A stretch of DNA of 45,757 nt from Desulfomonilia bacterium (lineage in GTDB: Bacteria > Desulfobacterota > Desulfomonilia > UBA1062). Made by a program: the position numbers and the translations under genes. The stretch is from assembly GCA_049275795.1 (NCBI GenBank), contig JBASVF010000200.1, forward strand, positions 1 to 45,757, read 5' to 3'. Under the pieces are notes generated by a model. That model ran no database searches. It was not told the origin of the DNA and saw nothing but the letters and a program-made list of their open reading frames with translations. Position 1 is the stretch's first letter; every line of letters begins with the position of its first letter. This document shows positions 15,058-41,941 of this stretch, piece by piece.

Positions 15058-15148
15058 TACAAACAAAATCAAATGTGTTCGCCGAAAGCCGATGATCCGG
15101 CGTTCAGGGCATTTCAATAGTGATCGTCACACAGAAAAAAACAACAGG

Positions 15149-18873: not shown

Positions 18874-20544
18874 ATGAGGAAACGAGGCGGTTTTCTGTTT
18901 GTGGCGGCGGTCTTTATCATGCTGGCCTTTGCGGGCTGCTCCGACAGCTCCAGCAGCTCGGACAGCGGCGGCCAGGGCAGCCCTCCCACCGCGCCAGCGG
19001 TTTCGGGCATCGCGTCTTCCGGGGCCGCTATTGACGGCACGGTCACGCTCAAGGACATTAGCGGCGAGGAGCTGGGACCACAGGACATCGGGCCGGACGG
19101 GAGCTTCAGCTTCGACGTCACCGGCCTTACCCCGCCCTTCGTGATCAGGGCCACGGACGGAGCGCGGTCCTGGTATTCCTGTTCACCAGGCCCCGGCACG
19201 GCCAATGTCAACCCCCTGACCACCCTGGTCCTGGCCATGGCCGCGCAGACGGGCAATCCGGCTGCGCTCTACGGCAATCCGGCCCAAATCACTGATGATG
19301 CGATCTCTTCCGCGCTCGAAGACATCCAGGCATTCTTTGCAAACCTCTTTTCCGGCTTCGGCCTCGATGCCGGCTTCGCCCCCTTCACCGGTGACTGCAC
19401 GGTCAACCACGACGGGATCGACGCGCTCTTCGATGCCCTCGAGATCGGCATCAGCCCCGACGGGAATCTCTCGGTCACCAGGAAGGCAACCGGCGAGGTG
19501 CTCGTGAACACCCCGATCACCGGGATCAACCCGGACGAGCCTCTTGAGGATACCGTGACAGCCCTTCTCCTGTGGGGAACCTACAACTACTGCCACCTGT
19601 CTTTCGATACCCCTGCGGCAACAAGCAAGGCTATCGCCGGCAGCTTGACTTTTGCGGCCGACGGTTCTTGGACTGCGGTCGAGGAGGCTTCTTCGAGCGG
19701 GGACACCGGTGATGAACGCGGAGAATATACCATGGCCGGCCCCGGGTATTTCATGCTGTCCGCCGAGCCGGACGGGCCCGGTTTCATGACCTTCGACCGC
19801 GAGATCGCCGTGGTGACGGACATGATCGACGACGGGAATGTGGGCCTCACCGTCCTGTGCAGGCGCGATTCATCATTGAGCGTCTCCGACATCTCCGGGA
19901 CCTACCTCTCGATGAACCTCAACCGGGCCGGCTCCGAGATATCGGTAGTCACCTTTGACGGGGCCGGGAGATTCGTCGCCGGAACAGAAGAAGAGCAGCG
20001 TACCGGCACGTACGCGATCGACCCGGACACGTGCCGCCTGACCCTGACCGTCATGGACGACGAGATCGATGAGGAGATCACATCCTTTGCCATGACCGCC
20101 AAGGCGGGCGACGTGATCGTGGCACCCGAGTTCTCCGCCCCCGATGAGGTGGGGATCAGCATCTTCGTGAGAATCTCGAGCAAGGACGGCTGGGGCGCCT
20201 CGAGCCTGGACGGATCCTATTACTATCTGAGTGAGATCTCCTCCCGGCGCAATGCTTCCCCTGGCGATATGGCGTATGCCTCGATAGGGATGCTGTGGTT
20301 CAATGGGGGCTTCATCGAAGCCTTGTTCTCGTACTCGGACAGGGGCACAGAGCCCGTCTCTGCTTTCCCCTATGCCGTCCTCGACTACCATGACGAACTC
20401 CAGCTGGCTTTCGATCACTTCCTCGTGGACGAGACGGATCTCGGGATAGCCACCCCGGACGGGGAGTTCTTCATCCTCATGGACGACGGGGACCCCGAAG
20501 AGGCAGGCATCAGCCTGGGCATTAAAACACAGCCCTTCTTCTGA
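18874..20544 (+). CDS. large secreted lipoprotein, unknown function (paralog 2)
   Basis: AAGGAGGA RBS, lipobox LAFAGC and a Ser-rich linker. The N-terminal roughly 110 aa are nearly identical to paralog 1 (GSFSFDVTGLTPPFVI, GPGTANVNPLT). The C-terminal end is homologous (GIATPDGEFF..EEAGISLGIKT). Confidence 0.85.
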   Translation: MRKRGGFLFVAAVFIMLAFAGCSDSSSSSDSGGQGSPPTAPAVSGIASSGAAIDGTVTLKDISGEELGPQDIGPDGSFSFDVTGLTPPFVIRATDGARSWYSCSPGPGTANVNPLTTLVLAMAAQTGNPAALYGNPAQITDDAISSALEDIQAFFANLFSGFGLDAGFAPFTGDCTVNHDGIDALFDALEIGISPDGNLSVTRKATGEVLVNTPITGINPDEPLEDTVTALLLWGTYNYCHLSFDTPAATSKAIAGSLTFAADGSWTAVEEASSSGDTGDERGEYTMAGPGYFMLSAEPDGPGFMTFDREIAVVTDMIDDGNVGLTVLCRRDSSLSVSDISGTYLSMNLNRAGSEISVVTFDGAGRFVAGTEEEQRTGTYAIDPDTCRLTLTVMDDEIDEEITSFAMTAKAGDVIVAPEFSAPDEVGISIFVRISSKDGWGASSLDGSYYYLSEISSRRNASPGDMAYASIGMLWFNGGFIEALFSYSDRGTEPVSAFPYAVLDYHDELQLAFDHFLVDETDLGIATPDGEFFILMDDGDPEEAGISLGIKTQPFF

Positions 20545-20625
20545 GGGTGTTTTACGGGCCCGCAGCCGGGACTACGTCCGGGGGCGGGCCCGCCATCCCC
20601 GGGTGATGTTTAAGCCGGGTGCGGC

Positions 20626-22126
20626 TTATTGCCTGGGCACGAAGAACTCCATCTGCGGGAAGTCGTCGAGATCCTTGGAGAGGCCGGCCCGCAGGAACGA
20701 GTTGACCCACTTGACGACGTCGTGCTTCTGGATCGAGGCCTGGAGCCTCCTCATTCGGGCCTGCCGCTCCTCCTGGTCCATGGTGAAGGCCCGGTAGATG
20801 GCGTCGGCCACGCCCTCGAGGTCGTAGGGGTTCACGAGCAGGGCGTGGGGGTAGAATTGGGCCGCGGCCCCGGCGAACTCGCTGAGGATCATGACGCCGT
20901 TGCCCTCGATGCTGCAGGCGCAGTACTCCTTGGCCACCAGGTTCATGCCGTCCTTGAGCGGCGTGATGAGCGCGATCTCGCAGGTCCGGTAGTAGGCCAC
21001 CAGCTCCTTGCGGGGCAGGGAGCGGAAGATGTAGTGCACCGGGGTCCACCCCACCTCGGTGTATCTGCCGTTGATCTCGCCCACCAGGCGCTCGATCTCG
21101 TGCCTGAGCTTCTCGTACTCCTTCACCCCCTGCCGGCTGGGCACCACCACCTGGAGCAGGGTGACCTTCCTCCTCCATATCGGGGTAGCGCGCCAGGGCG
21201 TTATCGAAGGCCAGCAACCGCTGGGGGATGCCCTTGGTGTAGTCCAGCCGGTCCACCCCCAGGATGATCTGCCTCCTGGGCAGGTTCGCGTGAATGATCC
21301 AGGCCTCGTCGGCCACCTCCTGGGTCTTGGCAAAATCTGCGAACTCGCGGTAGTCGATGCTGATCGGGAACGAGCCCACCAGCACGTCCCGGCCGTCGGT
21401 ATGGATGGTGTTGACCTGGCCCCTGCCCTCCACCCGGTACCCCAGCAGAGCCCGCACGCAGCCGATGAAGTTCCTGCGGTCGCGCGCTGTCTGGAACCCG
21501 ATCAGGTCGTACTCCAGTAGCGCATGGAGGATCTGGAACCTCCAGGGAAGCTTGAGAAAGATGTCCAGGGGCGGGAAGGGGATGTGCAGGAAAAAGCCGA
21601 TCTGCCGGTCGACGCCCATTTTCCTGAGCTCCCTAGCCACCAGGATGAGCTGGTAGTCGTGCACCCACAGGTAGTCGCCCTTGAGGGTGTGCTCCCGGGC
21701 ATGCTCGGCGAACTTCCTGTTCACCCGCTGGTAGGCCTCCCAGTACGACGGCTCGAACTTGCAGTTGCTGAAGAGGTCGTGGAACAGCGGCCAGAGGATC
21801 TCGTTTGAGCATCCGTGGTAGTACTGGGCGACCTCGTCCCGCGAGAGGTGGACGTACCTCAGCGAGTACCCGGTGCGGCTCGTCCCTGCCTGGAGCAGCG
21901 CGTCGAGCTGCCTGCCGCTCGGGCAGTCTTCCCGGGGGATGCCGAGCCAGCCCAGCCACAGCCCTCCCCGGTGCTTGAGGACCGGGCCCATGGCGGTGAC
22001 GAGCCCGCCCGATCCGGGCCTGATCTTCCAGTCCCTGGAGCCCGCCTTCTCGATGACTATGGGCAGGCGATTGGAGACCACAACCAGCCGTCCCGAACTC
22101 ACGAGATTTGTCCCCTGCTCGTTCAT
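20626..22126 (-). pseudogene. otsA: trehalose-6-phosphate synthase (GT20), apparent single-base frameshift
   Basis: The N-terminal part (MNEQGTNLVSSGRLVVVSNRLP..GGLVTAM..LWVHDYQL..GVDRLDYTKGI..ALARYPDM) is in the frame of ORF 20552..22354. The C-terminal part (RRKVTLLQVVVPSRQGVKEYE..TPLKDGMNLVAKEY..) is in the frame of ORF 20626..21333. The switch lies at about 21165-21180 (atggaggaggaagg), and removing one G gives RYPDMRRKVTLLQ. Confidence 0.85.
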
Positions 22127-22923
22127 GGCGCAAGCTCCGACCATGCCCTCAGGAAGTCCCTGACCGCCGGGATATCGGGCAGAAACCCCCTGGCTGCGCT
22201 GGGTGTGTCCGGAGGCCCCACCCTGATGCCGAAGCCGGTGTCCCTGATCCTCTCGAATGCGTCCTCGTCGGTGTCGTCGTCGCCGACAAAAACGCATGTC
22301 ACGGGCGGGCGCATTGCCTCTTCGATCTCGGCGAGCGCCCTGCCCTTGTTCCACCCTATGGCCCGGATCTCGACCCCGCCGTTGAACTTGCGCACCTCCA
22401 GGCCGCTTTTTGCCGCGATCCTCTGCCAGAGCCGTGCCACCCCATCCTCGAGCCGGGCCGAGGCAGCGCCGTCGAGCCCGCGGGTGTGGAGGGCAAGGCT
22501 GGCCGGCTTGATCTCCAGGAGCTGCTCAAGCCCCCGCATCTGGATCGCCTCCTGGGCCTCGGCAAGCCCCTTGAGCTGTTCCTTCCCGGGTGTCTTTGTC
22601 ACGATGTCCCCACTGGCGGAGCGCTTCTCGATCCCGTGGCTGCCCACCAAGATCCCGTTAAACGAGCCGAGCAGGATCGCCAGCTCGGCAAGGGGCCGGC
22701 CGGAGATGATCGCCAGGGTGGTGTCACCCCGCATCGTGATCCTCTCGAGAAGGGCCGGGATGCCCGGGTAGGGATATGCCTGCATGCGCTCGAGCCGGAA
22801 AGGCGCGAGGGTGCCGTCGTAATCCAGCGCCAGGAGCTTCCTGGGCGAACGGGCCATCCGGTCCCAGAAATATGGCAGGTTGATCACGGCGGGCTGCCGG
22901 CTTTCCCGATCGCTCCTGATCAT
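22123..22923 (-). CDS. otsB: trehalose-6-phosphate phosphatase (HAD family)
   Basis: LLALDYDGTLAP (HAD motif I), AIISGRP and CVFVGDDDTDEDAF (motif IV). The start ATG overlaps the treT-like stop (ATGA), and its stop overlaps the otsA ATG (ATGA). The upstream 240 codons of ORF 22123..23646 are out-of-frame overlap with treT. Confidence 0.85.
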   Translation of the reverse strand: MIRSDRESRQPAVINLPYFWDRMARSPRKLLALDYDGTLAPFRLERMQAYPYPGIPALLERITMRGDTTLAIISGRPLAELAILLGSFNGILVGSHGIEKRSASGDIVTKTPGKEQLKGLAEAQEAIQMRGLEQLLEIKPASLALHTRGLDGAASARLEDGVARLWQRIAAKSGLEVRKFNGGVEIRAIGWNKGRALAEIEEAMRPPVTCVFVGDDDTDEDAFERIRDTGFGIRVGPPDTPSAARGFLPDIPAVRDFLRAWSELAP

Positions 22924-24161
22924 AGCAGCTCGATCCTGTCCTGGGTTTCGAAGGCCACGGCCACGAGCAGGGTGAGGTACTCGCGCAGGTGCCGGGTGAT
23001 GAGAAAGTTCTCCCGGACGAAGTCCCTGGCCTTGGCCCCCATCTCCTCCAGCCGGTCGCGGTGCCTGAGCAGGTAGCGGATGCGCAGTGCAGCGCCCTCT
23101 GGGGTGTTGACGAGAAACCCGGTATGGTGATTGATGACCTGGAGCCTGATCCCTCCCGTGTCGCCGCCGATGACCGGCTTTCCCTTCCAGAGCGCCTCGG
23201 TCACGGTGAGCCCGAAGCCCTCGCGCGTGGACTTCTGGAGGATGATGTCCGAGATCCTCTGCAGGGCGTTGATGGTGCGGTGATCGTCCGGGGGCAGCAG
23301 CAGGATGTGGATGTCCGGGTCGTCGCCCGCGCTCGTCTTGACCTCGTTGAACACCTCCTCGCCCTCGGGGTCGTCCGTGGCCCCTCCTCCGGCGAGGATG
23401 AGCTGGACCGGGCTGAACTCCTTGACCAGCCGGTATGCGTGCACGACCCCCAAGGGGTCCTTGAACCGGTCGAACCGCGATATCTGGGTGATGATCGGGC
23501 GCTCCGGGTCGAGCCCCCACCGGGAGTATGCCCTGTCGAGCTCGTCCTGCTCGAGCTCGACGTTCTTGTCGCTCAAAGGGTCGATGCTCGGCGGGATGAG
23601 GTACATGGGGTGCGGCAGCCGCTGGGCGAACTCCGAGAGCGACCATACGCTCGCGTCATAGCCCCTGACGAACTCCCGCAAGAACTTCCACACCGGCCGG
23701 TACGGGGTGCTCGCATCGACGTGGCAGCGCCAGATCCACTTGCCCTTGCGGTAGGGAAAGCTCTCGATCATGGCTGCGGGCTGGGGATCGTGGATGAACA
23801 CGATGTCGGCCTCATCGAGCAGCTCTTGGAGGCGCCGGGCGTTCTCGCGGTTCACCTCCTGGTAATGCCGAAGCAGGTGCCCTGGGATGTCGATCCGGTT
23901 GCCCTGCAGGGTGTTGTGCATGAGCTTGGTACACTGGAAGAAGTCGGCATCACCCGTTATGGTCTCCCATATTGCATTGACCTCGAGCTCCTTCTTCAAA
24001 GGAATGATCCGATGGAGGATCTCTGCCACGCCGCCGCCCGCCTTGGTGGAGTTGATGTGAACGATGCGCTTGCCGCCCAGGAGCCCGGCCAGCTGCCTGA
24101 GCTGGTCGATGACATCCCGTCCCACGATCCGCTCGTACTGCTCGAGGAGAGAGGCCATCAC
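22920..24161 (-). CDS. treT: GT4 glycosyltransferase of the TreT (trehalose glycosyltransferring synthase) type
   Basis: 413 aa. The N-terminal IVHINSTKAGGGVAEILHRIIPL..FFQCTKLMHNTLQGN resembles archaeal/bacterial TreT as I remember it. The C-terminal GT1/GT4 motif reads STREGFGLTVTEALWKGKPVIG. The substrate assignment is unverified. Confidence 0.7.
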   Translation of the reverse strand: MMASLLEQYERIVGRDVIDQLRQLAGLLGGKRIVHINSTKAGGGVAEILHRIIPLKKELEVNAIWETITGDADFFQCTKLMHNTLQGNRIDIPGHLLRHYQEVNRENARRLQELLDEADIVFIHDPQPAAMIESFPYRKGKWIWRCHVDASTPYRPVWKFLREFVRGYDASVWSLSEFAQRLPHPMYLIPPSIDPLSDKNVELEQDELDRAYSRWGLDPERPIITQISRFDRFKDPLGVVHAYRLVKEFSPVQLILAGGGATDDPEGEEVFNEVKTSAGDDPDIHILLLPPDDHRTINALQRISDIILQKSTREGFGLTVTEALWKGKPVIGGDTGGIRLQVINHHTGFLVNTPEGAALRIRYLLRHRDRLEEMGAKARDFVRENFLITRHLREYLTLLVAVAFETQDRIELL

Positions 24162-24817
24162 ACACCTCCTTCCGGGAGGTACATGGTGAACACCCGGGCG
24201 AGCTCATCCCTGAGTTCCACCAGGGAGGTGAAGTAGGGGTCGACCTGGAAGATCTGCTCGGCCAGCTCGGCATATGCATCTCCGCAGGACCGGACCCAGT
24301 GCGAAAAGTCGTCCTTGCCCCAGGGCGGGCGCCTCCTCGCATCGATGAAGTGGTAGAAGACGCTGCCCGGAGAGAGGTGAGGGATGAGCTCGCCGAGCTG
24401 CTCCGGCGTGTCGAGCCGTATCCTGGTGTCGAAAACCACGATCTGGGACCTAACGAAGTAGAACCGCTGCGTGGCCCTGACCCAGGGCAGGTACTCGCCC
24501 TCGTCCATCCGCTCTTCGATCAGGTCGATGAGCTCCGTGCGGAGACCCTCGAGGTCGTGGTGCTCGGATGGGTCGACCAGGGCGAGACGCTCCGCGAGGG
24601 GCTTGTCACGCAGGCCCTGGTTTGCCCATATGGCGAAATCGTTCTGGTACTCCGGGTCGTCGAACCTCGGCCTTAAGAGTCCGCCCCAGAAGTGGTAGTA
24701 GATCGAGCTCAGGGGAATGATCTCGAGCCTGTCGCGCAGCTCCGTGAGGGTGTTGGCGTACTGCCCGGTCGCTATGGCTATCAATGCGCAGTCACGCACA
24801 GAAAACGGCTCGTCCAT
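24158..24817 (-). CDS. conserved hypothetical protein (I recall this family as DUF5752), first gene of the trehalose operon
   Basis: 219 aa counted from MDEPFSVRDCALIAIATGQ, preceded by GGAGAGAGG. The stop overlaps the treT-like start by 4 nt. The N-terminal 182 codons of ORF 24158..25363 look non-coding. Confidence 0.6.
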   Translation of the reverse strand: MDEPFSVRDCALIAIATGQYANTLTELRDRLEIIPLSSIYYHFWGGLLRPRFDDPEYQNDFAIWANQGLRDKPLAERLALVDPSEHHDLEGLRTELIDLIEERMDEGEYLPWVRATQRFYFVRSQIVVFDTRIRLDTPEQLGELIPHLSPGSVFYHFIDARRRPPWGKDDFSHWVRSCGDAYAELAEQIFQVDPYFTSLVELRDELARVFTMYLPEGGV

Positions 24818-25490: not shown

Positions 25491-25913
25491 ATGAAAAAGT
25501 TTGCCTTGTTGGCTATAGGTGCCCTGATCGTGATGCTCAGCTTCGGCGGCATGGCGTATGCGGCAGGGGAGGATGGTGGAATGGGAGCCGGTGCCGAGGG
25601 GCAGGCCACGGACAAGGTGGATCTCAATACCGCCGGCCTGGACGAGCTGCAGAGCCTTCCGGGAATGGATCAGGAGCTGGCCCAGAACATCATCGACTAC
25701 CGTGAGGCAAGCGGGCCCTTCTCCTCGGTGGACGACCTCGTCAATGTGGAGGGGTTCGACAGCGAGATGATCGAATCGATCCGTGACCAGGTCACGGTCG
25801 GCGAGCTGCCGGGCACCCAGCCCATCGAGCCCCAGGAGCCGGGTGGCGCCCCGGGTGGCACCATGGATCAGCCCATGGGTGAGCCCATGCCCGGCGAATC
25901 GCCCGGGTACTGA
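25491..25913 (+). CDS. secreted ComEA-like helix-hairpin-helix protein, variant hairpins (1 module)
   Basis: AAGGAGGA RBS and signal peptide ..GGMAYA. The module VDLNTAGLDELQSLPGMDQELAQNIIDYREASGPFSSVDDLVNVEGFDSEMIESI is followed by a P/G/E-rich tail. Confidence 0.85.
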   Translation: MKKFALLAIGALIVMLSFGGMAYAAGEDGGMGAGAEGQATDKVDLNTAGLDELQSLPGMDQELAQNIIDYREASGPFSSVDDLVNVEGFDSEMIESIRDQVTVGELPGTQPIEPQEPGGAPGGTMDQPMGEPMPGESPGY

Positions 25914-25955
25914 TCGATCGGGAGATCGATACCGGTAAACAGGTTGAGACGTAAG

Positions 25956-25999
25956 GAAAAGGGATGCCCTGGCGCTTTCCGGTGCCAGCATCCCTTTTC
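25956..25999 (+). terminator. hairpin, possible terminator/attenuator between ComEA-like genes 1 and 2
   Basis: GAAAAGGGATGC(CC)TGGC pairs with GCCAGCATCCCTTTTC, giving a 16-bp stem with a 2-nt bulge and a 10-nt loop. The 3-prime arm ends in TTTTC followed by TCTCC. Confidence 0.4.
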
Positions 26000-26105
26000 T
26001 CTCCTGTGCAGGGTATCCTCATCGAGGAGGTGCACACACATGCTCCGGCAATGGGCCTCTGGGAGGCGCCATCGCTGGCGGCGGGTATGCGAAGGAGGAC
26101 AGATC

Positions 26106-26990
26106 ATGAGACGAATCGGCGTATCGGCAGCTATCATCGCGCTCGTGCTCATCATGAGCGGCATGGCATACGCGCAGGCACAGGATGCTCAGCAGCAAGC
26201 AGGCGCGGAGCTGGTGAACGTGAACATCGCCACCATAGAGGAGCTCCAGCAGGTGCCCGGCATGGACCAGGCACTGGCACAGAGCATTGTCGAGTATCGG
26301 CAGGCAAACGGCCCCTTCTCTTCCGTGAAGGACCTCTCCAAGGTCCAGGGAATGGACGAGCAGAAGCTCAAGGGCATGAAAGGATACCTAACCGCGGAAA
26401 AGATCGACATCAATACCGCCACGGCCGAGCAGCTCAAGAACATTCCCGGAATGGACGAGTCCCTGGCCCAGAGCATTGTGGACTACCGGCAGGCCAACGG
26501 ACCCTTCTCCTCGGTGGACGGCCTCTCGCAGGTGCAGGGCATGGACCAGCAGAAGCTCGACTCTGTGAAGGGCTACCTCACCGCAGACAAGATCAACCTC
26601 AACACGGCCACTGCCGAGCAGCTCAAGGTGATCCCCGGGCTTGACGAGACACTGGCCCAGAGCATCGTTGAATACCGGCAGGTCAACGGCCCCTTCTCGT
26701 CGGTGGACGACCTCTCGCAGGTCCAGGGCATGGACCAGCAGAAGCTCGATTCCATCAGAGAGCACGTCAGCACCGACAAGATCAATCTCAACACGGCCAC
26801 GGCCGAGCATCTGCTGGTGATCCCCGGGCTCGACGAGTCACTGGCGCAGAATATCGTAGAATACCGGCAGACCAACGGACCCTTCTCCTCGGTGGATGAC
26901 CTTTCGCAGGTGAGCGGCATAACGGAGGACAAGCTCATCATCATCCGTGAGCATGTGAGCGTCGAGGACGAAGGCGGGGGAATGTTCTAG
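26106..26990 (+). CDS. secreted protein with four tandem ComEA-like modules, variant hairpins
   Basis: ATG at 26106 after GAAGGAGGA, with signal peptide ..SGMAYA. It carries 4 x 63-aa modules, each N[IL]NTATxEQLxxxPG[ML]D[EQ]xLAQSIVEYRQxNGPFSSVxxLSQVxG[MI][DT]. Confidence 0.9.
   Translation: MRRIGVSAAIIALVLIMSGMAYAQAQDAQQQAGAELVNVNIATIEELQQVPGMDQALAQSIVEYRQANGPFSSVKDLSKVQGMDEQKLKGMKGYLTAEKIDINTATAEQLKNIPGMDESLAQSIVDYRQANGPFSSVDGLSQVQGMDQQKLDSVKGYLTADKINLNTATAEQLKVIPGLDETLAQSIVEYRQVNGPFSSVDDLSQVQGMDQQKLDSIREHVSTDKINLNTATAEHLLVIPGLDESLAQNIVEYRQTNGPFSSVDDLSQVSGITEDKLIIIREHVSVEDEGGGMF
26211..26966 (+). repeat. 4 x 189-bp in-frame tandem repeat (coding domain repeat)
   Basis: Unit starts at 26211, 26400, 26589 and 26778. 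Units are clearly homologous at the DNA level but differ at many synonymous sites. Confidence 0.9.
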
Positions 26991-27170
26991 GATCCCGTGG
27001 CCGGCGGGCTGTTGCAGGTCCCTTCCTCAAGGGACCGGGCAGGAATGGAACGGCAAGAGGGGGTAATTCAGCCGTTTTCTCCGGCAGGCTCGAGGCCTCA
27101 GGCGGCCTTCGTGATGTTTAACAGGGCAATGTCGGTACAGAATACATGCTCAATAAGGAGGTAACCGGAG

Positions 27171-27614
27171 ATGGAGAACAGGTATATCGCAGGGATAGTC
27201 CTGGCGCTGCTCACCGCACTATTCTGTCTTGCCTCGTGCTCGGGCACGCAGGAGCGGGAGGTCGGAGGCCCCTACCCAGGGCCCGGAGGAACCTATGAGG
27301 AGCCAGGCGTGGCGGTCGAGCCGGTGGATATCAACTCGGCCACGGTGGCCGACCTCATGACCGTTCCCGGAATGGACCAGGTAACCGCGCAGAACATCGT
27401 GCAGTATCGAGAGGTGAACGGGCCATTCGACTCCGTGGACGGACTCTTGAATGTCAGCGGGATCGACGAGCAGAGGCTCGATACGCTGCGTGACTGGATC
27501 ACGGTGATGGAACCCGGAACCGGCCAGCAGGATATGGAGATGCCCTCCCAGGATGAGAGCGCTCCCATAGAGCAGGATCCGGGCGACGTGTTCCATAACG
27601 GAGAATACCAATAG
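27171..27614 (+). CDS. ComEA-like lipoprotein, variant hairpins (1 module)
   Basis: AAGGAGG RBS and lipobox LASC. The module reads VDINSATVADLMTVPGMDQVTAQNIVQYREVNGPFDSVDGLLNVSGIDEQRLDTL, followed by an acidic tail. Confidence 0.85.
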   Translation: MENRYIAGIVLALLTALFCLASCSGTQEREVGGPYPGPGGTYEEPGVAVEPVDINSATVADLMTVPGMDQVTAQNIVQYREVNGPFDSVDGLLNVSGIDEQRLDTLRDWITVMEPGTGQQDMEMPSQDESAPIEQDPGDVFHNGEYQ

Positions 27615-27879
27615 CCGAGAATGGAGTGTTTCATTCACCCCCTTTGAGCCGGCACAGATTCAAGGCGCATCTGGGCATCACCGGCAGGCGGCTCAGGCGC
27701 CTCCTGCCGCATGGAATCGCCCGGGCGTAGCGGGGAGGTGACGGCGCTGGCGCTTTTCGCACCGGCGTTGCCTGTCTACCTCGATGCGTGGGCGCAGGAA
27801 CGGGCGACCCGGTCTGATGCATTGCCTCCCTGAACACGGCCGTGCCTGGAGGGGGAGCAACAGTCCAAGGAGGAAAACC

Positions 27880-28356
27880 ATGAAGAGATGTCTCATAACC
27901 GCAATAGTGGTCCTGGCAGCCGTCTTTGCGCTGTCCCTGGCTTCCTGCGGGCAGCAGGGCGACCAGGCTCAGGTGGAACCAGGCACGCAGACCGACCAGA
28001 GCGCCCAGGCTCCGGGCGAGGAGCAGATGGACGGCCAGCAGGCCGCGCCTTCCACCCCCATCGACATCAATGCGGCCTCAGTCGAGGAGCTGGCCTCGAT
28101 CCCCGGACTCGACCAGACCCTGGCACAGAACATCATCGATTACCGCGAGTCGTACGGCCCCTTCTCATCGGTGGACGACCTGCTTCAGGTCAGCGGCATG
28201 GACCAGCAGACCCTGGATTCGATCAGGGGATGGGTAACGGTGGAGCAAGGAGAGGCCATGCCCGAGCAAACACCCGGGCAGACGCCGGGACAGCTCCCCG
28301 GCCAGGCTCCCGATGAGAGCCCGGGAGGCGCAATGGGGGGCGAGGGAGGCATCTAG
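27880..28356 (+). CDS. ComEA-like lipoprotein, variant hairpins (1 module)
   Basis: ATG at 27880 after AAGGAGGA, with lipobox LASC and a Q/E-rich spacer. The module reads IDINAASVEELASIPGLDQTLAQNIIDYRESYGPFSSVDDLLQVSGMDQQTLDSI, followed by the tail PGQTPGQLPGQAP. Confidence 0.85.
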   Translation: MKRCLITAIVVLAAVFALSLASCGQQGDQAQVEPGTQTDQSAQAPGEEQMDGQQAAPSTPIDINAASVEELASIPGLDQTLAQNIIDYRESYGPFSSVDDLLQVSGMDQQTLDSIRGWVTVEQGEAMPEQTPGQTPGQLPGQAPDESPGGAMGGEGGI

Positions 28357-28499
28357 CCCCTTACCCGGAACAACCGTCCTTAAGAGGTTATCCGTAAAAC
28401 GACGGAACCCCTTGAAGCCGGCAAAGGGTGCGAATCAGGACCGTAACGGGTTCTGATCGCCCTTTGCAAGGCCTCCCGCAGGCTCATGGACAAAAGCCC

Positions 28500-28535
28500 G
28501 ATGCCGGTGCCCAACAGCACCGGCATCCATTTTTT
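28500..28535 (+). terminator. rho-independent terminator
   Basis: 11-bp perfect stem GATGCCGGTGC/GCACCGGCATC (28500-28510 with 28517-28527) with a 6-nt loop, then a T6 run at 28530-28535. Confidence 0.65.
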
Positions 28536-28648
28536 ATCACACGACATTTTCCCCTTGTCTAAAGAGGCTGAATGGTTTTATAGAAATGATATTGTAATGA
28601 TGATGGTGCCTTTAAAAAGGCAAATTCAAGTATAAAGGAGGTTAAACA

Positions 28649-28984
28649 ATGCAGGGGAAAACGTGTACCATTCTGGCAGGAGCGGTCCTGGTTCTCGTGC
28701 TTGCCATGGGCGGCCTCGCATACGGAGAGTCGTCACCCGGGAAGATCAACATCAACACCGCCACGATCGAAGAACTCCAGCTGCTCCCGGGGATCGGCCT
28801 GGCAACGGCCCAGAACATCATCGAGTACCGTAAGGCCAACGGACCCTTCACCACCATGGAAGAGTTCACCAAGGTGCGGGGGATCGGTGAGCGCAAGTTC
28901 GAGCGGCTGCGCCCCTATCTCAAGCTCGACGGGGACTCTGATTTCGATCCGGTCCAGGATGTCCCGGACACGGAATCGCTCTGA
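28649..28984 (+). CDS. comEA: canonical ComEA-type periplasmic DNA-binding protein
   Basis: AAGGAGG RBS and signal peptide ..GGLAYG. The module ININTATIEELQLLPGIGLATAQNIIEYRKANGPFTTMEEFTKVRGIGERKFERLRPYL has both G-I-G hairpins and is net basic. Confidence 0.85.
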   Translation: MQGKTCTILAGAVLVLVLAMGGLAYGESSPGKININTATIEELQLLPGIGLATAQNIIEYRKANGPFTTMEEFTKVRGIGERKFERLRPYLKLDGDSDFDPVQDVPDTESL

Positions 28985-32921: not shown

Positions 32922-33822
32922 CCATCGCTCCTTCCTTCCTAAGCCGTTCGAACCGTTCCCAGTCCATGACAAAGGAGAGCTCGTTCATGGTGGATTCGAG
33001 CAGCTCCTTGTACTCCTTGCGCTCGAAGTACCGGTTCAGCCTCCGCGAAATGGGGTACATCTGCTCCGAGGGCTTCCACGAAAACGGCTCGCCGGTCTTG
33101 GCGTTGATCAGACAGTCGAAGGTGACGGCGAACGACACCTTGGCAAGGGGGACCTCCGAGAAGTCCCGCATGATCGCTCCAAGCGTCCCGGCGTCGATCG
33201 GGGAGAAGAACGAGTACATGCGCGAGTAGAGCTCAGAGTAGAGTTTCGAGTAGATTACCGCTGCGTGGTAGAACTCGGGGATATCGATGATGGCGTCCTT
33301 TTTGAGGTCCCTGCCGAAGGTGTAGAGGATCTTCTGCATGTTCTTGAGGCCACCGAGGCCAGGGTACTGCTGCCCCGGGAGCCTCGGCCTCTCCGGGGTG
33401 AAGGAGGCCGCTGGGTCCTGGAGGGCCAGCCACTCGATCAGGAGCATGGTGAGCCCGCCCTGGAAATCGAAATCCGGCACAAAGGTCTGCCTGGGCCTGA
33501 ACACCCCTTCGCGCACGATCAACTCGACGAGCCGCACCTCCTCGCCGGGGGATTTCTCCGAGCTGACGTAGAGCCTGGAGGTGTAGTTGTCCTGTTTCGC
33601 CAGATAGATGCGCAGGTCCCGGTATCCTTTCCAGGAAAGGATTTCCGTCATTCCGGACTTCTCGAGCAGGGCCCTGATCCCATCCTCGTCGTAGAGGCCG
33701 AGAAACCTTCCCGAGGAAAACAGGTCCCCGGGCGCATCGATCCGGGCGCCCTCGAACTCCCTGGTGATGTCCTCCAGGTACCTGGGCTCCTTCTTGGTCG
33801 GATAGCCGCTGCGTATTGTCAT
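32911..33822 (-). CDS. hypothetical protein (303 aa), no recognised family
   Basis: Long ORF of ordinary composition. It overlaps the comF stop by 4 nt and the downstream fusion-gene start by 11 nt. Confidence 0.6.
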
Positions 33823-34562
33823 GAGATCGTCCTCCCCACGCTCGCGAAAACAACGCGCCTGGCCCCGGCTCCTTTGAGCACCCTCGAGATCTCCCGGGCT
33901 GTCTGCCCTGTCGTGATCACGTCGTCGACGACCACGACCGACTTCCCCTCGACACCCGCGGCGGTGAAGGCGCCTTTCAGGTTCCTCTGCCTGTCGGCCC
34001 TGGGCAGTCCGACCTGGCGGGGCGTCTTCCTGGTCTTGCGCAGTACTCCATATCTCACATCGCCTCCCAGATATCCAGTCAATTCACGGGCTATGAGCGC
34101 CGACTGGTTATAGCCACGCTCCACCAGCCGCATCCAGTGCAGCGGAACCGGGAGGATGAGATCCGGGGCCGGCTCACTGCCTGCAAGGCTCTCGGCCAGG
34201 AGCCCGGCCAGGAACCTTTTGAACGAGGTGGCGCGGCGGTACTTGAACCGGTGGATGATGTCCCTGGCAAGGCCCTCGTACAGGCAGGCGCTCAGCATCC
34301 TGTCGAAGGGCGGCGGGCGGTGCAGGCACTCGATGCAGATCCCCGAGGTGCCCACGGGCGCTCCGCATATCTCGCAGGCAGGCTCCGGGATGCGGCGGAT
34401 CCTCGAGCGGCACTCCTCGCACACGCCCAGAACCACCTTTGCGTTGCCCGAGCACACCAGGCACCTTGCCGGCATGATATGGCTCACCAGGGGAGAAAGC
34501 ATGGAAAAACGTATACCACAGGGCCGTCCGGGCTCCAAGGCCCGCAGGGGCTTCTCGAGCAC
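33819..34562 (-). CDS. comF: ComF-family phosphoribosyltransferase-like protein
   Basis: N-terminal 4-Cys zinc region (CLVCSG..CEECRSR..CEICGAP..CIEC) and C-terminal PRTase motif VVVVDDVITTGQT. The start may be an internal Met (MLSPL.. or MPARC..). Confidence 0.8.
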   Translation of the reverse strand: MLEKPLRALEPGRPCGIRFSMLSPLVSHIMPARCLVCSGNAKVVLGVCEECRSRIRRIPEPACEICGAPVGTSGICIECLHRPPPFDRMLSACLYEGLARDIIHRFKYRRATSFKRFLAGLLAESLAGSEPAPDLILPVPLHWMRLVERGYNQSALIARELTGYLGGDVRYGVLRKTRKTPRQVGLPRADRQRNLKGAFTAAGVEGKSVVVVDDVITTGQTAREISRVLKGAGARRVVFASVGRTIS

Positions 34563-34610
34563 TCTTGACCGGCGGCCCGGGGCTGCTGTCAGGAACGGCC
34601 AGAACAGGCG

Positions 34611-35369
34611 CTACCCGTAGTACTTCTGGTAGTTGTACTTGCTGTACTTGTACTTCTTGGCTGGCAGGTCGTCGACCGCATTGAGCACGGTGCCTACGAT
34701 CTTGTTCCGCGGCAGGGCCTCGAGCGCCATCTTGAAATCCGATTCCCGGGTATAGCGGTACCTGGCCACCATGATGATCGCCTCCACCTGGTCGGCGATG
34801 ATCTTGGGGTCTACCGTGGCCTGGATAGGCGAGGTATCGAGGATCACGAAACGGTCCTTGTACCTCTGCGCGAGCTCCTGGATGAGCGTGCTCATCTTCT
34901 TGGATTCCAGGAGCTCCGAGGGGTTTGCCGGGGCCTCTCTGCCTGCGGGCAGCACGGTGAGCTTTTCGATGGGGGTCTTGATCAGGCAGTCGGCCACCTC
35001 TGCGGTCCCCTGGAGGATCTCGGCGACACCCTTCGACGGGGGGTACTTGAAGAGGTTGTACATGCTCGGCTTCCTGAGATCGCATTCCACGAGCAGCACG
35101 TACTGGTCCTCTCCCCTGGCGATGGAGATGGCGAGGTTGGATGCGATGATCGTCTTGCCCTCGGAGGGCAGCGCGCTGGTCACCATGATCACCCGGGGCG
35201 GTTCCTTGTCAGGCATGTGGAAGAGGTGGGTCCTGAGCTTCCTGATCTGCTCGGCGGTATACGAGTAGGGCATGTGGTACATGTAGAGGTGGTCGTCGAG
35301 CCTCCCGGTGATGGCGGCCTCGTTCAGACCCTCCACGTCCTGTTTTTCGAGCAATTTCCAGAGATCCAT
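34611..35369 (-). CDS. BY-kinase type tyrosine autokinase (EpsG/CapB-like)
   Basis: Walker A SALPSEGKT, Walker A-prime LLVECDLRKP, Walker B VILDTSP, and a C-terminal tyrosine cluster KKYKYSKYNYQKYYG. Confidence 0.85.
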   Translation of the reverse strand: MDLWKLLEKQDVEGLNEAAITGRLDDHLYMYHMPYSYTAEQIRKLRTHLFHMPDKEPPRVIMVTSALPSEGKTIIASNLAISIARGEDQYVLLVECDLRKPSMYNLFKYPPSKGVAEILQGTAEVADCLIKTPIEKLTVLPAGREAPANPSELLESKKMSTLIQELAQRYKDRFVILDTSPIQATVDPKIIADQVEAIIMVARYRYTRESDFKMALEALPRNKIVGTVLNAVDDLPAKKYKYSKYNYQKYYG

Positions 35370-35372
35370 GGC

Positions 35373-37154
35373 CTATTCCTCCGTGCTTACCTTGACAGGC
35401 CGTGCATAGAAAAAGCCCTTGCCCAGGAGCTCTTTTGCGTAGTCGATGGCGTCCTGCCTCTCCGTGAACGTTCCGATCGTGATGCGGTACCAGGTGTTCC
35501 TGTTGTCGTCGAGGTAGGGGTAAATCGTCGCCTCGTATCCTTTGCCAATCAGGTCGAGGAACACGGCCTTTGCCTCGTTCATGGAGTGGTACGAAGCAAC
35601 GCTCACGCTGTAGATGACCTGTGGGGCGATGTTCACCTGCGGCAGGAAGATCTTCTGCCCCTCGTAGATGAGATCCACGTTCCTCAGGTCGGGGTTGGCC
35701 TGCTTGACAGCCCTGAGGATCTCGCCGTCGAACCGGCCGTAGTAGTCGGCCGCGAGCTGTGCCACGGTATCCCCGAGCTGGACGACGACCACGGTGCCCT
35801 GGGGCTTCGCGGGTTCCACCAGCGAAGGGGGGACCGGGTGGCCGCTCGAGCCTTCCTCGTCCTTGAGCTTGAAGTCTTCCTGCTTGAACTCCTGCACCGG
35901 ATCGATCAAGGCCGTCTGCCTTCCCACGGGTGGTGAAGACGCCGCCTCCCTGCCGGCCGGCCTTGCCGGAGCAGCCTCGGTCGTTTCCCGGGTGGACCCG
36001 GCTGCAGAGGCTTCTGCCCGGCTGCGCGAACTCCGGGCGGGTGGCGCCGCAGAAGCTGCCTTTTCAGGCTCCTCTCGCAGGGAGGACGGTCCGGTCTCCG
36101 TGCGCGTTTCCCGCGCCTCGCGTTGCGCCTCCGGCTGCGGCCCCGCCTCTTGAACGCCGGATACCGCGTGGTCCGTGGCCGGCTCATCCTGGGCAGACAC
36201 CGGAGCCTCCGGCGATCCGGGCGAAAAGAGCCAGACCGCCCCGGCCAGCGCCAGGACCACGACCAAGATTGACCCCGCCCTCATGAGCCAGGTTCGGACA
36301 TCAGCCTGCGGGGCCGCCGTCTTCAGGGTCGGTTGCCTGCCGCCCGTCTTGGGCGAATACGTGCTCTCGAGCTCGGAGACGACCTTGCGCACCATCTGGG
36401 CGGTGATCTGCTTCTGATTTTCCGTGTAGGCGGAGATGAGAACGCTGTCGCAGACGATGTTGATGAGCCGGGGGAATCCCCTGGTGTAGCGGTACACCTC
36501 GGAGAGGGCCGACACCGTGAAGAGAGGCCTTTCCCTCGGTTCGTAGCCGGCGACCCTCAGCCGGTGATCGATGTAGTCCCTGGTCTCGCTGCCGTCCAGG
36601 GGGGGAATGTGATACTTGATGCCGATGCGCTGCTTGAGCTGCCTGAGCTGGGGGCTCCTGAGCTTTTCGTTGAGCTCCTGCTGGCCCAGCAGCATGATCT
36701 GGACTAGCTTCTCGTTGGTCGTCTCGAGGTTCGAGAGCAGCCGGATCTCCTCGAGCATCTCGAGCGACAGCCCCTGTGCCTCGTCCACGATGAGTACCGC
36801 GCCTCCGATGGTCTTCAGCCGCCCCTCGTATTCCTGGATGTGATCCCGGGAACGCTTGTCCTCGGGAAGGCCGATGGCCTCGCCCAGGAGGAAATAGAGG
36901 TTCTCGGGCCTGATGTGCGGATTCTTCACCACGACCTTCGGCATGCGGGGCGGGAGCTTGAGCAGGAACGCGTTCAAGATGGTGGTCTTGCCCGTGCCTA
37001 CCTCGCCGGTGATCACGACGAAGCCGCTCGCCTCCTTGAGGCCGTAGAGCAGGTGCGCCAAGGCCTCCTTGTGACCCGGACTCATGTAGAGGAACTTGGG
37101 GTTAGGGGTGATGGAAAAAGGCTTGAGCTTGAGTCCGTAATAACTTCGGTACAT
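35373..37154 (-). CDS. ExeA/GspA-like AAA ATPase (PEP-CTERM-locus secretion ATPase type) with TM segment, low-complexity linker, LysM and SPOR domains
   Basis: Walker A GEVGTGKTT, Walker B LIVDEAQ and TM segment GSILVVVLALAGAVWLF. The linker is about 150 aa and P/A/E/S/R-rich. LysM-like segment VVQLGDTVAQLAADYYG..IYEGQKIFLP. SPOR-like C-terminus YSVSVASYHSMNEAKAVFLDL..WYRITIGTFTERQDAIDYAKEL. Confidence 0.8.
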   Translation of the reverse strand: MYRSYYGLKLKPFSITPNPKFLYMSPGHKEALAHLLYGLKEASGFVVITGEVGTGKTTILNAFLLKLPPRMPKVVVKNPHIRPENLYFLLGEAIGLPEDKRSRDHIQEYEGRLKTIGGAVLIVDEAQGLSLEMLEEIRLLSNLETTNEKLVQIMLLGQQELNEKLRSPQLRQLKQRIGIKYHIPPLDGSETRDYIDHRLRVAGYEPRERPLFTVSALSEVYRYTRGFPRLINIVCDSVLISAYTENQKQITAQMVRKVVSELESTYSPKTGGRQPTLKTAAPQADVRTWLMRAGSILVVVLALAGAVWLFSPGSPEAPVSAQDEPATDHAVSGVQEAGPQPEAQREARETRTETGPSSLREEPEKAASAAPPARSSRSRAEASAAGSTRETTEAAPARPAGREAASSPPVGRQTALIDPVQEFKQEDFKLKDEEGSSGHPVPPSLVEPAKPQGTVVVVQLGDTVAQLAADYYGRFDGEILRAVKQANPDLRNVDLIYEGQKIFLPQVNIAPQVIYSVSVASYHSMNEAKAVFLDLIGKGYEATIYPYLDDNRNTWYRITIGTFTERQDAIDYAKELLGKGFFYARPVKVSTEE

Positions 37155-37163
37155 GGCGTCGCC

Positions 37164-38696
37164 TCAGAACGGCAGGGGAATCGGTATGCTCATGATGACA
37201 TGGTTCACCTTCGAGTAGCCTACCACGATGATCCCTGCGATGATAATTAACACGTTGATCCCGACGGCAAAAAGCATGTTGAACTTCCTGCGCTGCCTGT
37301 CGATTTGGGTGAGCGCCAGGGGAACGGCCGTGATGCAGGGTATGCCCCCGCTCCAGTGCTCGAGCTGCTTGATCCCCTTGACCGAGGAGTCCAGGAACTC
37401 CAGCAAAAAGATCAGGCCTGCTCCGGTGCCCAGGCCGAGGAAGAGGAACACCAGGCCCAGCTTGAACTTGTCCGGGCTCACCGGAATCTCGGGCGGCTGG
37501 GCGTAATCCAGGATCCGGAACTGCTCTCCCTGCTGCCTCTTTTCCATGCTCTCGGCGCGCTGAGCCTCGTAGTACCGGTCGAGGAGCCGCTGATAATTTT
37601 CCTGGGTGATGGTATAGTCTCTCGTGAGCGCGGCGAGCTCCTGTTCACGCTTGGGGGTGTTCTCCACCCGCTCCTGGTAGTAGTCGATCCGTTCCTTCAG
37701 CCTGGCCAGATCGGCCTTGAGGGCTTCCACCTCGAGGTCAGCCGCCTTCAGCTGGCTCCTGAGCTCGGCAACGTGCGGGTCGACGGAACCCGGCTCGTCC
37801 TTGATGCTCTCGAGCTCCCTGATCTGGCTCTCGAGGGTCTTGATGCTGGGATGCTCGGGCGTATACCTGGCCCTGGCCTCCTCGAGCTCGGACCTGAGCA
37901 CCAGGAGCCTCTGGCCCCGCTGGGACAGCGTGGCCCCCGGCTCGTCGCTCTCCATCTGGGAGAGCTGGGATTGGAGCATCAGCCTGGCGCTGAGCGCCTC
38001 GGTCAGGGAGGCCTGGACGGATTCCAGCCTCACCTGCAGGCCCGAGATGGTGGAGATGTTGCTGGTGAGCTGCTCGGGCAACTCACCCATGTACCGGTTG
38101 CGGTATTCCTTGACCCTGTCCTCCTGCTCCTGGAGGAGGGCCTTGAGCTCGCCCAGCTGCTTCTCGAGAAAGAGCGTCGTCTCGGAAGCCTGCTTGGCAC
38201 GCAGCCTCAGGTGAGACTCGATGAAGAACGAGGCGAGACGGTTGGTCACCTCGGCCACCTTCCAGGGATCCTGTCCCCGGTAGGTGATGGTGAACGAACT
38301 GGTCTGCCCCCTCGAGCCGCCCACGGTGCTGACCTCGATGTTCTTGCGCATGGAGGCCACCAGGATGTCCATGGAAACGCCCTGCGCCCGGTCCTCGCGG
38401 AAGAGGTCCATCTCCATGATGATGTTCTCGAGGTTCGACCGGGACATGACCTCCTGGGAAAGGGTCCTGAGCCGTTCTTCGATCCCCGAGCTGACCGTGG
38501 CCGCGACGTAGGCCGAGGGGATCTCCTGCGGCTGCACCAGGATCAGGGTGGTCGCCTCGTACTTCCGGGGCAGCACCACGTACAGCCATGCCCCGACGAA
38601 GAGGAATATCAGGAGCGGGATCGTCACCCAATGCCACTTCTTGACCAGGGCGTCGATGATATCCTGCACATTGATCTGCTTTGCCTGTTCGCTCAA
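37164..38696 (-). CDS. polysaccharide chain-length determinant (Wzz/EpsF-like, PCP family)
   Basis: The N-terminal TM and Wzz-like segment reads DIIDALVKKWHWVTIPLLIFLFVGAW. It is followed by a long coiled-coil periplasmic region and a C-terminal TM pair. It overlaps the upstream OMP gene by 4 nt. Confidence 0.8.
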   Translation of the reverse strand: MSEQAKQINVQDIIDALVKKWHWVTIPLLIFLFVGAWLYVVLPRKYEATTLILVQPQEIPSAYVAATVSSGIEERLRTLSQEVMSRSNLENIIMEMDLFREDRAQGVSMDILVASMRKNIEVSTVGGSRGQTSSFTITYRGQDPWKVAEVTNRLASFFIESHLRLRAKQASETTLFLEKQLGELKALLQEQEDRVKEYRNRYMGELPEQLTSNISTISGLQVRLESVQASLTEALSARLMLQSQLSQMESDEPGATLSQRGQRLLVLRSELEEARARYTPEHPSIKTLESQIRELESIKDEPGSVDPHVAELRSQLKAADLEVEALKADLARLKERIDYYQERVENTPKREQELAALTRDYTITQENYQRLLDRYYEAQRAESMEKRQQGEQFRILDYAQPPEIPVSPDKFKLGLVFLFLGLGTGAGLIFLLEFLDSSVKGIKQLEHWSGGIPCITAVPLALTQIDRQRRKFNMLFAVGINVLIIIAGIIVVGYSKVNHVIMSIPIPLPF

Positions 38697-41920: not shown

Positions 41921-41941
41921 AACTTAATAATACAGAATACA

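Follow-up and report, generated by a model that had tools for sequence, protein, structure and literature searches.

Five consecutive genes on the plus strand of a complete 45,757-nucleotide contig from the metagenome-assembled genome of an uncultured, anaerobic Desulfomonilia bacterium (the window, that is, the whole stretch of DNA analysed here), located between positions 25491 and 28984 and designated g1–g5, encode exported proteins that share eight modules of the ComEA type, each a small domain in which the helix-hairpin-helix (HhH) motif occurs twice. In the interpretation that we favour, with slightly better than even confidence, the products of g1–g4 consist of exported modules derived from ComEA, the hairpins of which are negatively charged and capped by their own side chains, and which bind a protein or another ligand that is not DNA. 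The proposed loss of canonical DNA binding in g1–g4 is well argued from the sequences and the predicted structures, and g5 probably encodes the true ComEA of this organism.

Open reading frames and profile searches bore out an earlier sequence-only reading of this DNA, in which five exported proteins encoded on one strand carried one or four modules each, eight in all. The Pfam profile HHH_3 (PF12836) matches all five proteins, with E-values from 3e-20 to 1e-88 (3.1e-20 for g1, 1.1e-88 for g2, and 5.7e-25 for g5) and with 72–88 bits for each single-module protein and 292 bits for g2, at a cut-off of 27. The g5 protein is additionally matched by Pfam HHH (6e-12). An hmmsearch over six frames of the whole window found exactly eight modules, all of them in the array. 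The scores against TIGR00426, which describes the HhH region of ComEA, are 53.5 (g1), 200.9 (g2), 46.6 (g3), 57.1 (g4), and 73.7 bits (g5) for a cut-off of 53.1, so that a ComEA-type domain is found throughout, with g3 under this threshold and g1 barely over it.

Hairpins, charge, and predicted fold of the modules

In HhH motifs, a DNA phosphate is bound by the backbone amides that begin the helix after the hairpin; the classical N-cap residues, which satisfy the amides of a helix start intramolecularly, are Asp, Ser, Thr, and Asn. A feature of functional ComEA, which in natural transformation serves as the receptor of the periplasm for dsDNA and binds it regardless of sequence, is G-h-G (h, hydrophobic) in both hairpins, and g5, with PGIG and RGIGERK, contains the sole module of the array in which G-I-G is found in both. 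In the seven variant modules, listed in order from g1 to g4, hairpin 1 reads PGMDQ, PGMDQ, PGMDE, PGLDE, PGLDE, PGMDQ, and PGLDQ, and hairpin 2 reads GFDS, GMDE, GMDQ, GMDQ, GITE, GIDE, and GMDQ, exactly as had been read earlier, letter for letter. The hairpin pairs are GMD/GFD in g1, GMD/GMD, GMD/GMD, GLD/GMD, and GLD/GIT in modules 1–4 of g2, GMD/GID in g3, and GLD/GMD in g4. Alignments of orthologues show no variation at the hairpin Asp in either hairpin. In a survey of 899 modules, drawn from 275 related proteins, replacement of the second Gly is by Asp, Ser, Thr, or Asn in 88% of cases in hairpin 1 and in 84% in hairpin 2; the same residues occupy this position in many multi-module HHH_3 proteins and in PsbU.

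The mechanism that we propose is that Asp (Thr in module 4 of g2), replacing the second Gly, would stand at the helix N-cap, where its side chain could satisfy the amides that bind phosphate in canonical modules, and that the hairpin Asp would place a negative charge exactly at the would-be phosphate site. The consequences of altering this site are known from ComEA of Vibrio cholerae, where G60 is the second Gly of the G-I-G sequence in the first HhH motif: the mutant G60A is tolerated, whereas G60E and G60V abolish DNA uptake and transformation, and both K63E and K62/63A eliminate the function of the protein together with its DNA binding in vitro (PMC3879209). The mutation K164A in Bacillus subtilis ComEA, equivalent to K63 in V. 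cholerae, lowers transformation more than 100-fold, and with K166A in the Geobacillus stearothermophilus protein the gel shift is lost (PMC9747964). The spacing between G60 and the conserved Arg of the YR motif, 11 residues, is the same in the variant modules, in which the positions of G60, K62, and K63 are occupied by Asp, by one of Glu, Ala, Ser, Thr, or Val, and by Leu or Thr, respectively. The variants also lack the lysines found after hairpin 1 in functional ComEA. At the position of V. cholerae K63, B. subtilis K164, and G. stearothermophilus K166, the seven variants have Leu or Thr, and g5 and its orthologues have Thr. In the g5 module and its orthologues (related loci L007–L017), basic residues cluster around hairpin 2, with Thr in place of the best-conserved DNA-contacting Lys of the literature.

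The net charge of the 62-residue modules from g1 to g4 is -12, -2, -5, -5/-6, -7, -7, and -9, compared with +1/+2 in g5, and the isoelectric points (pI) of the variant proteins are 4.05–4.4. The variant modules are therefore acidic, as had been claimed, but this property is not diagnostic alone, since ComEA modules of other phyla with G-I-G in both hairpins often carry a net charge of -4 to -10. The feature that sets the variants apart from canonical modules is not net acidity but the charge of the hairpin face, which is -3 in the variants (-6 in g1 and 0 in module 1 of g2), +3 in g5, and on average +0.2 to +0.8 in canonical modules. Away from the hairpins the canonical modules are acidic as well (mean -2.7 to -3.9), so that, outside the hairpin face, both classes are acidic. 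A halophile-type acidic proteome was considered as a cause of the acidity and rejected, since the face of g5 stays positive and the canonical modules are acidic only off the hairpins. As for g5, the earlier description stands in that G-I-G is kept in both hairpins, but its product is not "clearly basic": the pI of the module is 8.3 (mildly basic), that of the whole protein is 4.8, owing to an acidic tail, and the module charge of the orthologues ranges from -1 to +6, with -1 to +1 in close relatives and +5/+6 in distant ones.

AlphaFold (AF2) models of g4 and g2 were built with alignments of orthologues. In the g4 model, the module (residues 61–121) has a predicted local distance difference test (pLDDT) score above 90, and the linker (26–58) and the tail (124–158) are disordered, with scores below 50; Asp78 and Asp108 directly precede helices 79–92 and 109–115. 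The g2 model has a predicted template modelling (pTM) score of 0.80 and pLDDT above 93 across the four modules and the three-residue junctions between them, indicating that g2 is a rigid four-module rod rather than beads on a string. Asp54, Asp84, Asp117, Asp147, Asp180, Asp210, Asp243, and Thr273 are each located one residue before the next helix, and the hairpin Asp or Thr is thus predicted to occupy the N-cap position. The formats of the variants would differ, with a free single module in g1, the rod in g2, and two lipid-anchored single modules on disordered tethers in g3 and g4.

The best match of the g4 model in Foldseek is the DNA-binding domain of G. stearothermophilus ComEA (8dss), with a root-mean-square deviation (rmsd) of 0.8 Å over 63 residues. 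A single variant module also superposes on the Thermus thermophilus structure 2duy, and the Foldseek rmsd against ComEA structures is 0.8–1.4 Å; further structural matches are PsbU, GspK/XcpX, and NusA AR1. A Foldseek search with the g2 rod found no solved four-module analogue. Taken with the modelled Asp at the N-cap and the negative hairpin face, the V. cholerae data for G60E and for K62 and K63 support the claim, made at the outset, that the variants are unlikely to bind DNA in the canonical way.

Conservation of the array among relatives

Relatives were sought by scanning one genome of each species and then running hmmsearch on the retrieved loci. The identical array is present on 17 metagenome contigs. 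The layout of one, four, one, and one variant modules followed by a canonical one is found in the metagenome-assembled genomes (MAGs) LM3-B1m, SM3-B3m, and SO_2016_LW2 bin 6, all named "Deltaproteobacteria bacterium", as well as in Candidatus Phosphitivorax anaerolimi Phox-21, and in pieces in SV3-B1.1 and Syntrophaceae UBA1062. At least six related MAGs have the array in the same genomic slot, flanked on one side by otsA, a trehalose phosphatase gene, treT, and a DUF5752 gene and on the other by a CbpA-type dnaJ and a polyprenyl synthase gene, all on the minus strand. Three more distant MAGs (loci L013, L015, and L017) have a looser version in that same slot, consisting of a two-module protein and single modules, with hairpins GID/GMD, GMT/GIS, and GIN/GVD, and of a basic canonical module (+5/+6) that comes last. 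The trehalose cluster, which is divergent from the array, keeps its position in 9 of 9 related MAG loci. Syntrophs of the Candidatus Phosphitivorax type are common in anaerobic digesters (PMC7082340).

In a neighbour-joining tree, all variant modules form one clade, apart from the orthologues of g5 and from the ComEA modules of other phyla; both a clade of their own and a syntenic array, which the sequence-only reading had put forward as checks, were thus found. Inside this clade, modules from the same array position group together, and the duplications are therefore older than the divergence of these genomes. The size of the clade of single modules with G-h-D hairpins is not given by our representative all-against-all search, which is dominated by multi-module proteins. 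The HhH genes are 60–73% identical between genomes (60–73% for g1 in loci L007–L012 and 61–66% for g3), compared with 75–87% for the flanking genes. The ratio of nonsynonymous to synonymous substitution rates (dN/dS) is 0.16–0.24 for g1–g4 (approximately 0.17–0.21 for g1 and 0.22 for g3) and 0.25–0.32 for g5, all of these values being approximate, as dS is near saturation (0.7–1.5). With ratios of 0.16–0.32 and an invariant hairpin Asp, the array is an old, selected feature, kept under purifying selection. A recent neutral expansion, which absence of the array from close relatives had been expected to reveal, and an array of pseudogenes were both rejected on the basis of synteny, clustering of orthologues, and dN/dS. 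The products of g1–g4 would therefore be old, lineage-specific periplasmic paralogues of ComEA in the Desulfomonilia/Candidatus Phosphitivorax clade, in which the dual-HhH fold was kept and the site for the DNA backbone was lost.

Gene layout and surroundings

The positions of the genes and of the features around them are collected in Table 1. All five genes have an AAGGAGG Shine-Dalgarno site 5–9 nt 5' of the ATG. The frame of g2 is open from 25944, but its real start is the ATG at 26106 (MRRIGV..), because AAGGAGG is found there, 7 nt upstream, and is followed by a normal signal peptide. Signal peptides and lipoboxes were assessed by eye: those of g1, g2, and g5 are of the signal peptidase I type, g3 and g4 have L-A-S-C lipoboxes, and both kinds are kept in the orthologues. 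A Q/E/P-rich disordered linker of about 35 residues precedes the module of g4, and a PGQ-rich disordered tail follows it; the tail of g1 is rich in Pro, Gly, Glu, and Met. In g1, g2, and g4, the last residue of the disordered, Gly-rich, acidic tail is a conserved hydrophobic or aromatic one (..SPGY, ..GGGMF, and ..GGEGGI, respectively, with ..SSGY in distant relatives); this might serve as a tag recognised by, for instance, a PDZ-type protease or chaperone.

Table 1. Positions in the window of the array, its parts, and nearby features.
Feature	Position	Strand	Description
Lipoprotein genes	15092-16834, 18874-20544	+	Paralogues of about 560-580 aa
Trehalose cluster	20552-24817	-	otsA, trehalose phosphatase, treT, DUF5752
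g1	25491-25913	+	140 aa; 1 variant module; signal peptide end ..GGMAYA/A
C terminus of g1	25890-25913		Disordered, acidic
Terminator-like hairpin	25969-25988	+	With T-run, between g1 and g2; consensus scan only
g2	26106-26990	+	294 aa; 4 variant modules; signal peptide ..SGMAYA/Q
g2 modules 1-4	26214-26399, 26403-26588, 26592-26777, 26781-26966	+	HHH_3
Repeat region of g2	26256-26911		Unpaired modules 3 and 4 in the module tree
C terminus of g2	26964-26990		Disordered, acidic
g3	27171-27614	+	147 aa; lipobox LASC; 1 variant module; acidic tail
g4	27880-28356	+	158 aa; lipobox LASC; 1 variant module
C terminus of g4	28330-28356		Disordered, acidic
Terminator-like hairpin	28500-28527	both	Strong, bidirectional, between g4 and g5; stem of 11-12 bp, with T-runs on each strand
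g5	28649-28984	+	111 aa; signal peptide ..GGLAYG/E; acidic C-terminal tail
g5 module	28745-28930	+	Canonical
ComF/GntX-like gene, then exopolysaccharide genes	33819-39928	-	XrtA/PEP-CTERM locus
Response regulator and histidine kinase	40487-43924		Sigma-54 type regulator

Repeat analysis describes g2 as 3.5 copies of a 189-bp period with 82% DNA matches. Modules 3 and 4 of g2 from this genome fail to pair in the tree with their counterparts in the relatives, a hint of gene conversion or re-duplication inside g2. The NCBI name of the exact g2 protein (P0174) is "ComEA family DNA-binding protein [Desulfomonilia bacterium]".

The five genes are probably separate transcription units, with g5 not co-transcribed with the variants. 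A single operon that includes comEA is unsupported, given intergenic gaps of 180–290 bp, the hairpins after g1 and g2 (the latter a weak one, from the same kind of scan), and the strong terminator before g5, which is separated from that gene by an AT-rich stretch. A search of Rfam with the region of 24–30 kb returned no family, a scan for sigma-54 promoters near the array gave no site above chance, despite the sigma-54 regulator nearby, and the five upstream regions share no motif other than the Shine-Dalgarno site.

Metabolic genes are also located upstream of the array. The two lipoproteins encoded there, which are 54% identical and Ser-rich after the lipobox, have no match in Pfam; the second of them is also conserved in related MAGs, where it adjoins the trehalose genes and is about 50% identical. 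On the downstream side, XrtA/PEP-CTERM exopolysaccharide genes come after the ComF/GntX-like gene and encode a tyrosine autokinase, an ATPase, a chain-length determinant, and an outer-membrane protein. The HhH proteins of the array carry no PEP-CTERM or other sorting tag.

Possible roles and comparison with known HhH proteins

Several observations weigh against a non-DNA ligand for g1–g4. Apart from the hairpins, the ComEA signature is intact in the variant modules (NxNTA, YR, and NGPFxSVxDL), the hairpin face of module 1 of g2 is neutral, and the N-cap geometry is that of the AlphaFold secondary structure, that is, predicted. The absence of Lys at the position of V. cholerae K63 is weak evidence, as Lys is found there in 14 of 55 canonical modules (in a biased sample), and the near-saturated dS blurs the estimates of selection. 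The gene context points to no partner and favours none of the ligands suggested at the outset, namely cation-bridged eDNA, exopolysaccharide, a polymer of the cell envelope, and ComEA itself, and the canonical comEA always adjoins the variants in this clade, which would also suit a role related to DNA. Binding bridged by divalent cations could take place in spite of the altered hairpins. A reading that is unlikely on balance yet deserves attention is that the variants are still DNA receptors, as their NCBI name has it: extra copies of ComEA, periplasmic or lipid-anchored, that bind incoming or extracellular DNA, perhaps through Mg2+ or Ca2+ bridges from the hairpin carboxylates to the DNA phosphates or through another face of the module. 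It agrees with the strong matches to HHH_3 and TIGR00426, with the constant adjacency to canonical comEA, with the ComF/GntX-like gene 5 kb off, with the net acidity of many accepted ComEA modules, and with g5 itself lacking the conserved Lys. However, it has to accommodate Asp in both hairpins, where G60E kills V. cholerae ComEA, a negative charge focused on the very face that binds DNA, the marginal or failing TIGR00426 scores of g1 and g3, and the fact that proteins, rather than DNA, are the ligands of those HhH domains in which G-h-D hairpins are known.

Adjacency to comEA in every genome of the clade could also mean that the variants are modulators or decoys of DNA uptake, the acidic modules binding as nucleic-acid mimics to the basic face of the g5 ComEA, to pilins, or to the secretin, and either holding ComEA in reserve or handing DNA over, much as NusA AR2 masks the RNA-binding domains of NusA. 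This special case of binding to a protein is, in our estimation, improbable. The face charges are complementary (-3 to -6 versus +3, with +5/+6 for whole distant canonical modules), the NusA AR domains offer an analogy, and a secretin-like giant, P0062, carries four degenerate HHH_3 modules; but g5 lies in its own terminator-bounded transcription unit, its orthologues in close relatives are approximately neutral (-1 to +1), neither co-variation nor a complex speaks for such contacts, and the adjacency may reflect mere tandem duplication. We give equally little credence to a broader form of this idea, in which the variants represent an unrecognised exported "phosphate-mimicking" class of HhH domains, with the DNA-phosphate site filled by their own carboxylate, that act in the envelope as DNA mimics or adaptors and could, for example, gate or relay DNA uptake by docking on the DNA-binding face of ComEA, on pilins, or on the secretin, with the rigid rod and the two tethered forms placing this activity at set periplasmic depths. 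A role as bulk polyanionic envelope proteins, with the HhH fold as a soluble scaffold for binding Ca2+, Mg2+, or metals, for Donnan or osmotic buffering, or for a matrix, is quite improbable too. The low pI, the disordered linkers and tails rich in D, E, Q, P, and G, the perfect Shine-Dalgarno sites, which suggest high expression, the conserved neighbours for trehalose synthesis and a DnaJ-type chaperone, and the exopolysaccharide locus 5.6 kb downstream would all fit it. Yet those neighbours are of a housekeeping type and on the opposite strand, so that the link may be a coincidence, no sorting tag is present, the conserved part is the folded modules rather than the tails, and what stays invariant is a set of particular residues in the hairpins, not acidity in general. 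Finally, it is barely credible that the variants are decaying or neutral duplicates of comEA without a function of their own: they have lost the canonical motif and evolve faster than the flanking housekeeping genes (60–70% versus 75–87% identity), but one-to-one orthologues are found in every related MAG, frames, signal peptides, and lipoboxes are intact, and an invariant hairpin Asp, dN/dS of 0.16–0.24, and strong Shine-Dalgarno sites would not be expected of them.

If the reading of g1–g4 as modules with self-capped hairpins is true, the name "ComEA family DNA-binding protein" is incorrect for g1–g4 and, by extension, would be so for the many HHH_3 modules with Asp, Ser, Thr, or Asn at the second hairpin Gly. 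A candidate rule, in which G-h-G with a neutral or positive face predicts DNA binding and G-h-[DSTN] with a negative face predicts none, could sort the DNA-binding from the non-DNA-binding domains that resemble ComEA. The array may also indicate a periplasmic function descended from a DNA-uptake receptor, as PsbU may have arisen.

Comparison of the variants with ComEA of known structure (2duy, 8dss, 8dfk) reveals the same compact dual-HhH fold, in which there is no connector helix, periplasmic export, and the signature NxNTA, L..hPG, YR, and GPF.S..DL. The variants differ from it in the G-h-D/T hairpins, the negative hairpin face, and the missing lysines after hairpin 1, as well as in formats that include a four-module rod and lipoproteins on long disordered tethers, and their DNA binding is predicted to be lost. 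The alpha-domain of GspK/XcpX (PF03934) likewise has degenerate HHH_3-like modules that serve outside DNA binding. Membership in that family (NF037980, cut-off 130) was rejected, as g2 reaches 116.9 bits only as a sum and single modules 19–28, and as the array proteins have Sec or lipoprotein signals and neither a prepilin leader nor a pseudopilin body. The best sequence match to the variant profile in the PDB is EEPD1 (9yi2), which also has tandem HhH modules, both without G-h-G (PGVT and RGLS), but is a eukaryotic protein of a nuclease family.

Similar hairpins are found in other proteins as well. P0146 and P0169, unrelated to the array, are exported multi-module proteins, the hairpins of which read GID/GID or GIE/GID and the modules of which have charges of -5 to -11; they look like a convergent version in another lineage. 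The 2526-residue P0062 is a fusion of a secretin-like protein with ComEA-like modules, of which the four at the C terminus have hairpins GMP/GMT, GFD/GVT, GLE/GIT, and GLD/GVT. The loci of P0146, P0203, and P0226, which come from unrelated lineages and were compared as proteins with similar hairpins, have no neighbour in common.

PsbU, the 12-kDa extrinsic protein of photosystem II (PF06514), is small and exported (to the lumen) like the variants, has a ComEA-like HhH domain, and binds proteins, namely photosystem II, and not DNA. Its second hairpin, PGLTE, resembles SGITE of module 4 of g2. The products of g1–g4 pass the Pfam gathering score for PsbU of 24.5 (28–95 bits, with 28–31 for single-module proteins), and g5 scores 19.1. 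Against the stricter NF002708 (cut-off 85), single modules score 18–38 bits, and g2 reaches 91.8 only by summing its four modules. Unlike the variants, PsbU has a different first hairpin and does not occur in a multi-gene array, and the host is an anaerobic member of Desulfomonilia with no photosystem genes in the window; membership was not accepted, with single modules far under the cut-off and no sign of phototrophy.

A parallel to the hairpins is provided by the C-terminal acidic repeats AR1 and AR2 of Escherichia coli NusA (residues 363–495), acidic dual-HhH domains with the sequences ..IEGLDEPT.., ..LEGVDRDL.., and ..IEGLTDEK.. in PDB entries, that is, with G-L-D, G-V-D, and G-L-T. These domains bind proteins: phage lambda N, the C-terminal domain of the RNA polymerase alpha subunit (alpha-CTD), and SuhB, the last two being bound by AR2 (PMC6614801). 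In turn, they differ from the variants in being cytoplasmic, part of a large transcription factor, and of the five-helix (HhH)2 type. Membership of the variants in the NusA family (TIGR01954) was rejected, as g1 and g4 score 24.0 and 21.4 bits, respectively, against a cut-off of 48.15 and the variants are exported and stand alone; the G-h-D/T hairpins and the acidity are the only features in common, and nothing points to shared ancestry other than that of the HhH superfamily. A literature search found no paper on the exported five-gene array or its clade, in agreement with the initial statement that no described function was known for such an array, although the G-h-D hairpin itself has precedent in NusA AR1/AR2 and PsbU. 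An HhH domain retooled for partners other than DNA is therefore of a known kind, whereas this exported array and its clade are undescribed, and the variant modules would serve, like NusA AR1/AR2 and PsbU, as units binding a protein or another non-DNA ligand, in this case outside the cytoplasm.

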